From: a virus
DNA: 64,000 nt
Virus record (IMG/VR): IMGVR_UViG_3300045988_114440
Location: 37,704-101,703 of that record
Strand: one strand, 5' to 3'
Shown: positions 10,171 through 13,464 of the stretch, one piece after another
Layout of the letters: the number at the start of each line of letters is the position of its first letter
How positions within the stretch are numbered: position 1 is the stretch's first letter
Made by a program: the position numbers and the translations under genes
The notes under the pieces: generated by a model
Seen by the model: only the letters and a program-made list of their open reading frames with translations
The model's database searches: none
What the model was told of the DNA's origin: nothing

Positions 10171-10309
10171 AATGTTTGTGTGAGGAATGGAAATGATGCT
10201 GAAGGGCATATGTGGTGTGAGAGATGAAAAAGGTTTGTGTAATAAGGGAGAGGATAAAATGTTTATATAATGGGAGAGAGATAAAAAAGGTTTGTGTAAT
10301 GGGAGAGAG
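10171..10309. repeat. purine-rich direct repeats (GTTTGTGTAAT[AG][AG]GGGAGAG twice, plus a related GTTTGTGTGAGG copy)
   Basis: Repeat copies at about 10226-10252 and 10283-10309; a third partial copy near 10174. Confidence 0.5.
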
Positions 10310-10338: not shown

Positions 10339-10396
10339 GAAACGCGTTTTCTCCCCCCACACCCCCTTCGCTGGAAAACCGGAAACGCGTTTTTAC
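10339..10396. promoter_or_regulatory. two copies of the perfect palindrome AAACGCGTTT flanked by C-tracts (candidate dimeric protein-binding sites)
   Basis: gaaacgcgtttt at about 10339-10350 and again at about 10383-10394; CCCCCC/CCCCC runs between them. Confidence 0.4.
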
Positions 10397-10789
10397 CTTA
10401 AACCTACAAACTCGCTGATTATCAACATTTTATTTAAATTATTGATAATCAACGTATTATTGTAACCTATTGATTATAAGCCATTTAAATAAACATATAT
10501 CCTACATATTAATGTACGCGTATAATACCGCTCTTGTGTATTTTGTAACTTGCTAATAATCAGATAATAGAATCGAAATTAATACAAGTTAACAAAAAAA
10601 AGATAGTATATATATTTGTAGTAACAATAAAAGTAGTATATTTGCAATGTGTTAAAGCGATAACACATGCTGACATGATGATCCTATATAGTGTACCCGT
10701 TGGGCAAACTATATCTGTATCTGTAATTGCCCGCGTTGTGGGTTATTAAGTTGAATATCATTTGTTTAACAATTAAAATATATTGGATT

Positions 10790-11329: not shown

Positions 11330-11800
11330 AAAAAGGTTAGGCGCGTACCGTTAAACGCGTCTGTACGCCGTTGTCAGTGGGTGCACGTCCCGCGTATGCT
11401 TTAGACTGAAGCTGACAAAACAGAGAGTTATTTTACATATTGGAGATAGATATACCTTTGCCCTTGCCGTTGGCAATTAAAGGGCTGGTATTGCTGCATG
11501 AACTGCACTAAATAAGTGTGGTTTATGTTAGGTATGTTAGTACAGTTTGGAAAACATACCGTTGTACGCGGTTTATCTCCAGACCGAAACGTGTCTTACT
11601 TGCCTACACGTAAAATAGGACAAGGCTGTAGATTAAATTACAGGGTATAAACATGTAGCCTACCATGTAGGAGCGTGATATATCAAAACGCAAGGACACA
11701 ATCGCCTTTATTTGTGGCTAAGTTGTGTAGCAGACGGAAAATATAATAACAACATAGTACGGGCCTGTACACAAGAACTACGTACTAATTACGGGCTGTT

Positions 11801-11863
11801 GGTTGTAGCATAAAATTCGTATAGAATAGGAATGCGTGTTCGGTTCGATTCCGGAGCAACCTC
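11801..11863 (+). ncRNA. tRNA-like minihelix element (acceptor-like stem plus canonical T-arm)
   Basis: ttcgg-TTCGATT-ccgga T-arm; 5' ggttgt pairs with 3' gcaacc; no anticodon arm found by eye. Confidence 0.3.
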
Positions 11864-11886
11864 TAAATTATAAACAATATAATAAC

Positions 11887-12057
11887 ATGGGAAAGAAAGC
11901 AATGATCAACGCTTTAACTGAAGCGTTCAATAAATCTAAAAACAGTTGCGTAAAAATAACATTGCGTAACTATATCGAGACGGTTGAAGCACTAAGCGAA
12001 AGTGAGTACAAAGAGGCGGAAGGTTTCTATATTGAAGCACTTAACCGCTGGGGTTAA
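11887..12057 (+). CDS. hypothetical small protein (56 aa)
   Basis: ATG at 11887 (MGKKAMINAL...); the track ORF began at an upstream GTG that overlaps the tRNA-like element. Confidence 0.35.
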   Translation: MGKKAMINALTEAFNKSKNSCVKITLRNYIETVEALSESEYKEAEGFYIEALNRWG

Positions 12058-12079: not shown

Positions 12080-12286
12080 ATGAAAAGGAAATTTAAATCT
12101 CACATGGTAGACGTCCGCGGTCTGTCCAGGAAAGAAGCTAAAGAAAAGCGGAAAAGAGCGTATCGGGAATTTATGTTGTATCGTGATCTTAAAGAAGCGT
12201 ATCATGCCGATACAGGAAAGGATAAATGTAAGCGTAAAGTTCATACATCACGAACATACGTCAAGGAAAATATAAACAGTATTTAA
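12080..12286 (+). CDS. small basic (K/R-rich) protein, possibly DNA-binding
   Basis: MKRKFKSH...KEAKEKRKRAYREF; co-oriented. Confidence 0.45.
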   Translation: MKRKFKSHMVDVRGLSRKEAKEKRKRAYREFMLYRDLKEAYHADTGKDKCKRKVHTSRTYVKENINSI

Positions 12287-12290
12287 ATAG

Positions 12291-12330
12291 GAGTAGGGTT
12301 TTTTCGAATATCGGAGCAGCCCTATTTTTG
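12291..12330 (+). terminator. possible terminator hairpin
   Basis: taggg...cccta stem with long loop, followed by TTTT. Confidence 0.3.
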
Positions 12331-12392
12331 TATCCTACTCTTTCTATTTACGGGTATGATATTCTGAGAGTGAACGGCGAATGTGGACAATA

Positions 12393-12484
12393 TTGGTCTA
12401 AAACGAAACAAAAATAGGAGCGTTCGGATATAATGCCGGTATTTTGTCTATATCATGTCGTTAAAATTGGTCTAAAACGAAACT
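12393..12484. repeat. two 21-nt direct repeats A[AT]ATTGGTCTAAAACGAAAC separated by a roughly 53-nt spacer
   Basis: Copies at 12390-12410 and 12464-12484. Confidence 0.5.
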
Positions 12485-12814
12485 TGAGGCGGTTTTCTGA
12501 CCCAAAATAGGGTGTCGGATGCCGCCTTTTTCATCTCTATGGATTGAAAATTAGGCTTATTGTATTTTTCTTAAAAATGAGGTATGCTTGATTATCAATT
12601 AGTTAGGTTTTATAATCCCCGTATTTTTGGACATACTTATTGTATTTTTTTATTCTATGTGGTGGTTTTTATTAGTAGCTGATCTTTATTTTCTGTCGGT
12701 TGGTATTCGCTCTATGTTGGAGTACGGACCGGATCAGTATAATATTGTAATGGTCTTTTGCTTTTCTTTGTTGGCTTTGATTATAGGTTTAAATATCTAT
12801 CTTGATAGGAGGAG

Positions 12815-12952
12815 CAGGCGGTAGGGCGTGGGCTGAAGGCTCTCTATTCTCTCTATGGAATGATATTATCTCCAAATCCCCCATACTCCATGCCAGAGTA
12901 TAAGCTTGTAGCGCTCTCCGTATGCCGGTAGTGAGGCGGTAGGGCGTGGGTT
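12815..12952. repeat. GC-rich direct repeat AGGCGGTAGGGCGTGGG, two copies about 120 bp apart
   Basis: Copies at about 12816-12832 and 12934-12950, inside a long noncoding stretch. Confidence 0.5.
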
Positions 12953-13023
12953 CTATGCGGAAAGCCGGAGGATTAGCGGGAGTTGGAGAGGGGGAGAGGG
13001 AGGGCACTCCCTACCAACAAAAT

Positions 13024-13140
13024 TCAATAGATAAGCGTTTTAAAACAACATTATGTAGGGTTTTCCCACAAAATTAAGGATTACAGTGCTTTAAAACAGC
13101 ATAATGTGAGTTTATTCTACAAAATTCAATAGGTTGAGAG
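13024..13140. repeat. tandem imperfect repeats of about 45 bp (TTTAAAACA[AG]CAT[TA]ATGT.GGTTT....ACAAAATT)
   Basis: Two adjacent copies; AAAATTCAATAG also recurs at 13019 and 13111. Confidence 0.45.
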
Positions 13141-13194
13141 TTGAAAACTATATTCTATAGATTAGTGGTAATCGGAATGTTTAACAATTAAAAT

Positions 13195-13464
13195 ATGGAT
13201 GGTATGAACGTATATGATTTTGCACCCGATTTAGATTTGAGTAAAGAAGTAGAAGGTTCTATTTTTGGGGTGAAAGGAATAGAAGGCAGTGATGGTATAG
13301 TATATGCTAAGGTAGTTAGCTTTATAGAAGTTAGGGATTACAGTTGTGAGGGGTGTATTTTTAATGATTGTTATAAGGATAAATGTTTATTATCGCGTAG
13401 TGATAGTTGTATAGATGGAGATTGGATTTGTAGGTACGAACAGGCTGCCATAGAGGGGGAGTAG
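13195..13464 (+). CDS. small Cys-rich protein, paralog of the 14655-14879 gene
   Basis: FAPDLDLS... CEGCIFNDCYKDKC aligns with FGPDMDLS... CKDCIFFNNSERC in the 14655-14879 product. Confidence 0.5.
   Translation: MDGMNVYDFAPDLDLSKEVEGSIFGVKGIEGSDGIVYAKVVSFIEVRDYSCEGCIFNDCYKDKCLLSRSDSCIDGDWICRYEQAAIEGE

Follow-up and report, generated by a model that had tools for sequence, protein, structure and literature searches.

In the genome of a human-gut crAss-like phage, a block of same-strand genes is split by some 900 nt of repeat-rich DNA, and the question that this island raises is what it does there. The window, i.e. the whole stretch of 64,000 nt analyzed here, belongs to an epsilon crAss-like phage with a genome of ~150 kb and is ~90% identical to crAssE-Sib (OR575929; a record of 151,256 bp), in which the island is syntenic. 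This phage group is common in human gut viromes, and more than 120 public gut viral contigs carry the island. Upstream of it, the block carries replication and nucleotide-metabolism genes, from a helicase gene through NrnA. Downstream come roughly 40 kb of same-strand genes, which in crAssE-Sib start with ~30 small ORFs and lead up to the primase and DnaB genes; the 89-aa protein that opens this series belongs to a cluster with 3,819 member sequences. To our knowledge, nothing is known about DNA packaging or the start of infection in epsilon crAss-like phages. The crAssE-Sib genome paper does not mention the region in any wording on repeats, non-coding or intergenic DNA, or promoters.

A preliminary description of the sequence had presented the island as noncoding throughout and had proposed five functions for it: a partition or centromere-like site, a second origin, a promoter array, a noncoding RNA locus, or a degenerate CRISPR mini-array. 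Taken together, these proposals are partly supported, with the mini-array rejected and the second origin disfavored. The repeats that it listed are all present, and above chance. One real gene, the overlap with the reported terminus of the closest relative, and the hypervariability of the tandem array had escaped it. Overall, two operons are separated here by a control region that is strongly conserved; it is not a new kind of element, and the findings on it require no new kind of biology. Its features are collected in the table.

Table. Features of the island and the first gene downstream, in window coordinates.
Feature	Position	Strand	Description
T1 intrinsic terminator	12287-12335	+	hairpin 12287-12331, U tract TATTTTTGT
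Conserved block GATATTCTGAGAGTGAAC	12358-12375		contains 12368/12369, equal to crAssE-Sib position 1 / 151256
Module M1	12381-12454	+	29-nt DR1 (invariant core 12392-12409), AAAATAGG..TCGGAT box, weak GCCGG hairpin, then TATTTTG
Module M2	12455-12535	+	DR2 (core 12466-12483), boxes as in M1, strong terminator T2
T2 intrinsic terminator	12479-12532	+	followed by UUUUU
H3, imperfect hairpin / inverted repeat	12542-12600	+	59 nt; AT-rich stretch upstream of the small gene
-7 promoter box TATTTTTG	12622-12629	+	matches Bacteroidota TAnnTTTG; 35 nt before ATG 12657
Poly-T tract	12646-12652	+	variable length; segment from ATG 12584 to ATG 12657 is 76-79 nt among genomes
Small gene	12657-12824	+	55-aa protein MWWFLLVADLYFLSVGIRSMLEYGPDQYNIVMVFCFSLLALIIGLNIYLDRRSRR; ATG 12657 to stop 12824
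GC-rich 17-mer, copy 1	12816-12832	+	overlaps the stop codon of the small gene; nearly invariant among relatives
GC-rich 17-mer, copy 2	12934-12950	+	two alleles
Purine and G tract GGGAGTTGGAGAGGGGGAGAGGGAGGG	12978-13012	+	four G3+ runs; ends in hairpin H4
Minisatellite	13017-13169	+	core ACAAAATT[C/A]A; three 51-nt units in the window
First downstream gene	13195-13464	+	89 aa, Cys-rich; heads a long run of small + strand genes

Diversity, reading frames and base pairing were counted in 84 distinct relatives, with codon position 3 (pi 0.16-0.19) as the neutral yardstick. The relatives compared share about 75-80% identity or more, and crAssE-Sib is the only member of the group in the phage collection; three more divergent contigs all terminate inside the tandem array. 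Outside this array, diversity was 0.02-0.11, with pi of 0.05-0.07, or 0.04-0.10 at the widest, for 12287-12656 and of 0.07 for 12825-12933 (>80 distinct genomes). All parts of the island except the array are under purifying selection. Functionless intergenic filler, with repeats that are chance products or decaying duplications, would suit an array evolving at or above the neutral rate, an exact GC-rich 17-mer repeat that is allele-specific, and a GC-rich part without significant RNA structure. The low diversity and the invariant spacing of the direct repeat contradict it for every part but the array, and we regard it as very improbable. The core of the direct repeat (DR), the GC-rich 17-mer, the array core and box 2 each occur only in the island within the 151,256 bp of crAssE-Sib, and they are likewise confined to it within the 64-kb window. 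Therefore, the repeats are not general promoters, and what is left of the proposed promoter array is one host-type -7 box before the small gene.

The supposed 900-nt noncoding island is in fact a mosaic, of which 168 nt encode protein. Since ORF 12657-12824 is coding, the noncoding parts are 12287-12656 and 12825-13194. The frame of the small gene is intact in 83 of the 84 distinct relatives and its substitutions are conservative; polymorphic sites number 13/4/26 at the three codon positions, with pi of 0.161 at position 3 and 0.039 at positions 1 and 2. The 55-aa protein matched no Pfam or PHROG family, and its hydropathy profile displays two hydrophobic helices and a basic tail. The gene is real, and its product is a conserved protein predicted to span the membrane with two helices. 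An 80-aa version from public databases was considered and rejected: translation from ATG 12584 joins the frame of the small gene in just 15/84 genomes (2 of these with a stop), so the 80-aa gene calls do not describe a conserved product. The two six-frame ORFs of the island had both been judged noncoding, which is wrong for 12627-12824, the one containing the gene, and right for the minus-strand ORF 12789-13007. Across 12825-13015, polymorphic sites fall at 29/28/32 by codon phase, i.e. with no three-base periodicity, so the minus-strand frame looks noncoding.

Ahead of the small gene, the -7 box carries a T at its seventh base in ~80% of relatives, and no -33 TTTG was found upstream of it at 12596-12604. 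Many other genes in the window are likewise preceded by the TAnnTTTG motif, at a distance of 25-43 nt. Hairpin H3 folds at -17.2 kcal/mol (z = -4.3), and in the column-shuffle test alifold scored its + strand at z = -2.2 and its - strand at z = +0.3; its covariation is neutral, with 8 compatible and 7 incompatible variant types.

The first part of the island is bounded by two hairpins, T1 and T2, each with the GC-rich stem, the U tract and the stronger folding on the + strand that characterize intrinsic terminators. T1 begins 1 nt past the stop codon of gene 12080-12286 and terminates the upstream block. Its fold reaches -20.8 kcal/mol, with z = -3.7 on the + strand (0/200 shuffles) and z = -1.95 on the - strand; 97.7% of the cells are paired among the 84 relatives, and variant pair types are compatible in 9 cases and incompatible in 2. 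For T2, the fold is -25.5 kcal/mol (z = -4.4, 0/200 shuffles), again more stable on the + than on the - strand. Between the two, the ends of the crAssE-Sib record abut in the alignment at 12368/12369 of the window, inside a block found with at most one mismatch in 178 loci. The start of that record was placed by PhageTerm (p = 1.5e-22), the packaging class being unstated (crAssE-Sib paper). A physical DNA end at 12368/12369 is thus reported for the relative and, judged by the alignment, would fall at the same place here.

Next to this block, the 21-nt direct repeat of the preliminary description was confirmed at 12389-12409 and 12463-12483 (AATATTGGTCTAAAACGAAAC and AAAATTGGTCTAAAACGAAAC), 74 nt from start to start with a 53-nt spacer, and it extends to 29 nt at 86% identity. 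Its 17-nt core has 2 copies in the window, against 0.26 expected at up to 3 mismatches, and at least 2 matches occurred in 0/100 shuffles. Only the 3' 18 nt are common to both copies, the 5' third differing between them. This 18-nt box is the best-kept part of each ~74-nt module: pi is 0.040 in DR1 and 0.019 in DR2, compared with 0.10-0.13 in the module flanks and 0.16-0.19 at codon position 3. The spacing of DR1 and DR2 is 74 nt, about 7 helical turns, in 176/176 loci, and the two boxes begin ~35 nt from the start of the terminus block. The M1 hairpin is not significant (z = 0.08). Among the predicted pairs, two-sided changes were seen in 0/33; conservation of the primary sequence with 0/33 compensatory pairs fits recognition by a protein. 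A long hairpin at 12373-12462, although predicted in most variants, was discarded: two of its positions are mismatched for the most part, and compensatory changes are absent.

These features lead us to the reading that we consider best, with a probability of roughly 0.4: the island, as the junction of two gene blocks and the reported start of packaged DNA in the closest relative, acts as a control region for the genome end and the early leader. Its boxes would then be recognized by the terminase or form part of a short leader RNA. For a candidate packaging or terminus site, the island offers motifs restricted to a single locus, purifying selection and an invariant box spacing. Against packaging, the terminus is a single published PhageTerm call on a relative, the terminase genes are ~20 kb distant, and each box belongs to a module closed by a U tract after a terminator-like hairpin, a layout that one would expect of a transcription unit rather than of a protein-binding site. 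In crAssE-Sib, the putative small terminase (TerS) is WOZ57248.1. By analogy with known packaging systems, the small terminase may bind the boxes.

Two such systems invite comparison. Lambda cos consists of the cosN nick site and of cosB with its R3, R2 and R1 boxes for the small terminase, and SPP1 pac consists of pacL, pacC and pacR. Like them, the island has a reported terminus in a conserved block with repeated, phased boxes within ~100 bp, and its primary sequence is conserved and occurs once per genome. Unlike them, it has no more than two boxes, which lie on the same side of the putative cut; its terminase genes are 20 kb away, and its boxes sit in modules with a terminator-like hairpin. 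There is no sequence similarity between these sites and the island. The leading end of T7 has a terminal repeat, arrays of short repeats and promoters A1-A3 before gene 0.3, and N4 has early promoters for its injected virion RNA polymerase. The island resembles both in that ~0.8 kb of DNA, rich in repeats and for the most part noncoding, separates a putative genome end from the first of many small same-strand genes, in a phage that carries a virion RNA polymerase. It differs from N4 in lacking the N4-type hairpin promoter consensus and in having one host-type promoter box. Precedents among crAss-like phages are the defined ends of crAss001 and DAC15/DAC17, formed by direct terminal repeats, and the pac site of crAss002. 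The genome end of DAC15 (MT074136), which was inferred experimentally, likewise includes an ORF-poor stretch of ~500 nt in its terminal repeat; in this noncoding stretch, direct repeats of 28 nt are spaced 79 nt from each other, and small tandem repeats are present as well. It has no sequence similarity to the island, the annotated gene orientation within the repeat is opposite, and DAC15 is of a different family (Steigviridae).

The same two modules could instead be a small-RNA locus, expressed as one RNA of ~195 nt (~12338-12532) or as two tandem siblings, one terminating at the M1 hairpin and the other at T2, with the DR core as their identical, single-stranded seed of 18 nt. The RNA would be made early and pair with host or phage transcripts, and the nearby terminus would be coincidental or secondary. 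That the strong + strand terminator T2 follows ~190 nt free of ORFs suggests a noncoding transcript starting between T1 and T2. The modules are homologous, each closing with a hairpin and a U tract, and the conserved core with variable flanks behaves as a small-RNA seed does. A TAnnTTTG box at 12323, overlapping the U tract of T1, could supply the promoter, and the alignment fold of 12338-12535 gave z = -2.4 on the + strand against -1.0 on the - strand. OmrA and OmrB are tandem sibling small RNAs sharing a seed; as in that pair, the island has adjacent homologous modules with an identical core, divergent flanks and a hairpin with U tract in each. Unlike that pair, its first terminator is weak and its RNAs are candidates by sequence. 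Several results argue against such a locus: compensatory base changes are absent, the M1 hairpin is insignificant, the 12323 box reads TATTTTCG in ~40% of relatives, no Rfam family matched, and the only complementary target in the phage genome at up to 4 mismatches is a 14/18 site in the NrnA gene. The Rfam search of the island found no match at gathering or at permissive thresholds. Overall, a small RNA from the two modules is possible but not probable, and the stretch 12338-12535 may still be a noncoding RNA locus of some kind.

A positional parallel is provided by phi14:2, in which two long intergenic stretches of the early region yield abundant early noncoding RNAs. These long RNAs come from the g004-g005-g006 intergenic regions, and their function is unexplained (bioRxiv 10.1101/2020.03.07.982082). 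The virion RNA polymerase of our phage is related to that of phi14:2 (crAssE-Sib paper), and the island, too, is a long intergenic region among small same-strand early genes. The parallel is one of position only: kinship with the phi14:2 noncoding regions was rejected, there being no similarity in sequence or repeats.

The repeats of 21-29 nt had also been taken for a degenerate CRISPR mini-array, that is, a phage-borne array or solitary units mimicking a host CRISPR repeat. The likeness is superficial and lies in a pair of direct repeats that end in GAAAC and have a spacer-like gap between them. Yet the "spacer" of 45-53 nt is conserved in >80 genomes (pi = 0.097 vs 0.16-0.19 neutral), and the repeat has no hairpin, only two copies, and a 5' third that is unconserved between them. 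In an exact scan of 185,579 species, each represented by a single genome, the 17-nt core occurred in no repeat array. The scan returned 40 single matches in unrelated coding genes, and the only double match was the phage itself, mis-binned in a MAG. We therefore assign the CRISPR proposal almost no probability.

Past the small gene, the GC-rich repeat AGGCGGTAGGGCGTGGG was found as described, in two exact copies starting at 12816 and 12934, 118 nt apart, for an expected count of 0.01. About half of the relatives have AGGCCG-AGAGCGCAGG instead at copy 2, so the exact 17-mer repeat is not a conserved feature. The hairpin AGGGAG-GGCA-CTCCCT (H4) also stood up, at 12997-13012, with -14.8 kcal/mol and z = -3.0. 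Taken as a whole, 12825-13016 has no significant conserved RNA structure (single-sequence z = 0.08, alignment column-shuffle z = -0.8). A large structured RNA in the GC-rich part had been suggested by alifold energies of -32.7 on the + strand and -6.9 on the - strand; the shuffle z-scores undo it, the strand difference being due to base composition.

The AT-rich tandem repeats are real, although not as two repeats of ~45 bp. The array consists of three 51-nt units (13017-13160, 69-71% identity), and these begin, rather than end, with ACAAAATT[C/A]A. Across the 84 relatives, it has 1-10 core copies and a total length of 116-544 nt, in units of 19, 21, 22, 24, 31, 34, 39 or 50-52 nt. Its diversity is high (pi = 0.23), and the copies inside one genome are often identical. 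A hairpin in each 51-nt unit was considered and dropped, since the proposed arms pair in 29-78% of 65 distinct units; mutual information within the units reflects two unit subtypes and not base pairing. Contigs from several assemblers break at the array. In a complete contig, head and tail overlap inside it, and contig 108509 overlaps itself there. The clustering of contig ends was accordingly rejected as a sign of a physical DNA end: contigs stop within tandem arrays, both in the island and around 10200-10270, because assembly breaks there. No contig carrying the island ends at 12369.

The array is central to another explanation, in which the island is a protein-binding array controlling replication, partition or the early operon, with the tandem core ACAAAATTCAA acting as iterons, operators or a centromere, helped by the DR boxes as accessory sites. 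Many relatives have a period of 21-22 nt with up to 6-7 identical copies, and an 11-nt core was kept in every one of several independent expansions, although these used different units; the number of core copies may therefore be under selection. The surroundings include hairpins and an AT-rich stretch, and each 51-nt unit contains the 10-bp palindrome GTTTTAAAAC. Iteron arrays are found at plasmid and phage origins, and direct repeats of 21-22 bp period beside AT-rich DNA are a likeness to them in many relatives. Unlike iteron arrays, the island has 1-10 copies, a varying unit length and no adjacent initiator gene, and the GC skew points elsewhere; conservation is confined to its 11-nt core. 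A repressor and antirepressors are encoded in the phage group (crAssE-Sib paper), but no rep, par or repressor gene is adjacent, and the neighbors of the island match no Rep-like family. Some genomes have a single core (L069, L135), and the rest of the array changes at the neutral rate or faster. Units of 19, 24, 34 and 39 nt break helical phasing, which we do not claim, because these periods misfit while those of 21, 31, 42 and 51 nt agree with it. In some genomes (e.g. L059, L043, L015), expansion extends to the neighboring purine tract, which fits a local slippage hotspot. We consider such a protein-binding array unlikely.

The origin and partition proposals can be judged separately. The cumulative GC skew of crAssE-Sib has its minimum at 17 kb and its maximum at 110 kb, both of them strand-switch points where skew is confounded by gene orientation, and the island is at 0/151 kb; a second origin is thereby disfavored. 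With no par genes near the island, a partition or centromere site is disfavored as well.

Returning to the genome-end and early-leader reading, the parts of the island could work together as follows. The terminus block and the two phased boxes would form the recognition site for packaging or end formation, and T1 and T2 would shield this site from transcription. The DNA of the island would enter the cell first or last. The island promoter would then express the small membrane protein, and the early genes may be expressed by read-through or via the virion RNA polymerase. The tandem array would be mainly a slippage product beside the G-rich tract, with at most its 11-nt core functional. A bolder combination, in which sibling small RNAs, or one two-seed RNA, are made from the first-entering genome end and the minisatellite is a contingency locus tuning the early operon, seems doubtful to us.

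For this phage group, the island is a candidate element for packaging or for the leader, short, unique and under strong constraint, and virome reads that already exist would allow a test. It also includes a conserved 55-aa membrane-protein gene that has so far been unannotated or mis-annotated. The array, at which assemblies break, calls for caution in judging completeness, and it may be of use as a natural marker of strains. If the bolder combination were true, the copy number of the array, which changes faster than point mutations accumulate, would tune the early operon in widespread gut phages.

The island (12290-13194) forms the boundary between transcription units and contains a real small gene together with unique constrained elements. 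The sole related record in the phage collection was OR575929 (listed as "csAssE-Sib", published as crAssE-Sib), in which the island is syntenic, with about 89-91% identity to the window over the island and its flanks. In crAssE-Sib, a single-strand gene block extends from 17.4 kb across the record start/end to 110.9 kb and is split by the island. The upstream part carries helicase, ThyA, RuvC, sliding clamp, SSB, tRNAs, PNK and NrnA and ends at terminator T1; the downstream part opens with some 30 small ORFs, after which come primase, DnaB and related genes. Derived from a human gut virome, crAssE-Sib is an epsilon crAss-like phage with a 151-kb genome in the proposed genus Epsilonunovirus, and prophage-like sequences related to it are reported from Parabacteroides (PMC11054128). 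These relatives, together with the Bacteroidota -7 promoter box TAnnTTTG preceding many genes of the window, fit a Bacteroidales host. A 3,943-nt fragment of the phage island was also present in a "Veillonella sp." MAG (L156, NZ_DXLG01000138.1), a binning artefact.

We aligned 84 distinct island copies from public viral contigs. For three genes, pi was 0.16-0.19 at the third codon position and 0.015-0.042 at positions 1+2. All island segments but the tandem array lay below the third-position values, so the whole island except the array is under purifying selection. The constraint on the DR cores, the 18-nt cores ("boxes") of the direct repeats, equals that on nonsynonymous sites.

Features of the island, with pi across the aligned copies
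Feature	Position	Strand	pi	Remark
T1 terminator	12287-12335	+	0.071	directly after stop codon of gene 12080-12286; z = -3.7
Conserved 18-nt block	12358-12375			
Module M1	12381-12454			contains DR1
Module M2	12455-12535			contains DR2
DR cores			0.019-0.040	
T2 terminator	12479-12532	+	0.067	
Interval	12536-12656		0.052	
Hairpin H3	12542-12600			
Homopolymer T tract	12646-12652			5-11 nt upstream of small-gene ATG; length differs between genomes
Small gene	12657-12824	+		
GC-rich 17-mer	12816-12832, 12934-12950			
Segment	12825-12933		0.070	
Segment	12934-13016		0.106	
Tandem array	13017-13169		0.23	

The preliminary description took the island as noncoding. This held for the minus-strand ORF 12789-13007, which showed no coding signature in the 84-copy alignment, but not for the small gene, which was intact in 83/84 copies. 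Its polymorphic sites at codon positions 1/2/3 numbered 13/4/26, and the amino-acid changes were conservative (I/V, L/F, S/L, P/A/S). The 55-aa product combines two hydrophobic helices, visible in the hydropathy profile, with a tail reading DRRSRR; it matched no family in Pfam or PHROG. Many database entries carry an 80-aa form, which depends on the length of the poly-T tract: variation of this tract puts an upstream 25-codon extension in or out of frame. The longer form was in frame in just 15 of the 84 genomes, two of which had a stop codon in it.

The four repeat and hairpin features described earlier were all present in their places and above chance. The AT-rich tandem repeat, however, consists of three units of 51 nt instead of two of about 45 bp, and ACAAAATT[C/A]A opens each unit rather than ending it. 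A CRISPR reading of the repeats was rejected by a genome-collection scan. The exact GC-rich 17-nt repeat is allele-specific, the second site being AGGCCG-AGAGCGCAGG in about half of the genomes. The stretch 12825-13016 folded no better than shuffles; it terminates in a G-rich purine tract, expanded in some genomes, and a short hairpin.

The tandem array is the most unusual part of the island. Across the 84 genomes it had 1-10 cores over 116-544 nt, with units of 19, 21, 22, 24, 31, 34, 39 or 50-52 nt, and the core, ACAAAATT[C/A]A, was always kept. Copies were often identical inside one genome and different between genomes. Two relatives, L094 and L090, had 0 differences over 785 nt of flank, yet their arrays differed by 84 nt. 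The best explanation of the array is a hotspot of slippage next to the G-rich tract. Repeated independent expansions have retained the 11-nt core, and selection on the number of cores could be involved as well. Several assemblers produced contigs that stop in the array, and the two ends of a complete contig of 154,949 bp overlap each other within it, so contig ends here are assembly breaks, not termini. A second tandem-repeat region lies at 10219-10309 (29 nt x 3.2) and 10416-10474 (27 nt x 2.1), with another ORF-poor stretch at 10361-10726. Viral contigs ending at about 10200-10270 include L005, L008, L015 and L016, and many public contigs with the small gene are ~2.5-2.85 kb long, in agreement with the distance between this array and the one at 13017.

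Several other features of the window were observed. A good Bacteroidota -7 box, TACCTTTGCC, at 11453 (+) falls in an ORF-free stretch of 506 nt (11330-11835) and could be the sign of a further noncoding transcript. Downstream of it, 11801-11861 (+) resembles the 3' part of a tRNA, with a T arm (TTCGG-TTCGATT-CCGGA), an acceptor strand pairing with GGTTGT at 11802 and one more hairpin; ARAGORN made no call and Rfam gave no match. A T-to-C change in its T-stem in crAssE-Sib turns a G-U pair into G-C. The element may be what is left of a tRNA, or else a core resembling an attachment site. The 166-nt segment 11899-12064, containing most of the small ORF 11836-12057, is missing in roughly 40 related loci, and its flanks overlap by ~28 nt in the alignment. 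An Rfam HEARO RNA (IscB/HNH-element RNA) was found at 44685-44914 (+), scoring 90.4 bits against a family threshold of 83, in a ~880-nt gap after ORF 42794-44494; no IscB-sized ORF lies beside it. In crAssE-Sib, the gene at the position of that ORF has the same length, 566 aa, and carries the annotation flotillin family protein.

In the left half, the T1 hairpin was paired in 97.7% of cells across relatives. The 21-nt repeat proved to be the best-conserved portion of a ~74-nt tandem duplication. Both modules contain a DR, a AAAATAGG...TCGGAT box and a GCCG hairpin followed by a U tract; in the second, an additional 5' arm produces T2, a strong terminator (-25.5 kcal/mol, z = -4.4). Core-to-core spacing was 74 nt in 176/176 loci. 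Compensatory double changes occurred at 0/33 predicted pairs, so the constraint acts on primary sequence; the retrieved relatives were all at least ~80% identical, and covariation tests are limited in power accordingly. The interval from T2 to the small gene contains a significant hairpin of 59 nt (z = -4.3) and a -7 box at 12622.

The first and last bases of the crAssE-Sib record correspond to window 12368 and 12369. The record start was set via PhageTerm (p = 1.5e-22) in a single paper (PMC11054128). This reported terminus falls within the conserved 18-nt block, which starts 35 nt before the first DR core, or 48 nt before it in one subgroup. It is also 1 nt from the centre (12369.5) of a 27-nt inverted repeat (arms 12308-12334 and 12405-12431, 78% complementary), which may be due to chance, since few parts of the left half are less conserved than the right arm. 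Among cultured crAss-like phages, crAss001 and DAC15/DAC17 have direct terminal repeats and crAss002 a pac site. In DAC15 (MT074136), the 1,842-bp exact terminal repeat includes an ORF-poor stretch (303-808) where 28-nt direct repeats are spaced 79 nt from each other and tandem repeats of 14 nt also occur. On matters of repeats, non-coding or intergenic sequence and promoters, the published crAssE-Sib description makes no mention of the island (PMC11054128).

Judged from sequence, we tentatively read the island as a terminus and leader region (probability roughly 0.4), in which the two boxes and the terminus would form a recognition site for terminase or end formation. Four facts speak for such a site: the boxes occur nowhere else in the genome, keep an invariant spacing of about 7 helical turns, are conserved as primary sequence with covariation absent, and adjoin the reported terminus. 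The DR core, GC 17-mer, array core and the unit's second box were all confined to the island in the 151,256-bp crAssE-Sib genome. The layout is comparable to lambda cosN-cosB and SPP1 pac; T7, N4, OmrA/B and iterons offer further mechanistic comparisons. Counting against a terminase site, each box sits in a module with a transcription-unit-like end, and no ORF precedes T2 for it to terminate; both would suit a short leader or small RNA. A precedent exists in phi14:2, whose long intergenic regions yield abundant noncoding RNAs early on. We rate a small-RNA locus independent of the terminus as somewhat less probable than the terminus and leader reading, and a binding array serving replication, partition or regulation as unlikely; the GC-skew extremes of crAssE-Sib are at 17 and 110 kb, with none at the island. 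The terminase-site and leader or small-RNA readings are not exclusive. The components of the island are all known kinds of element.
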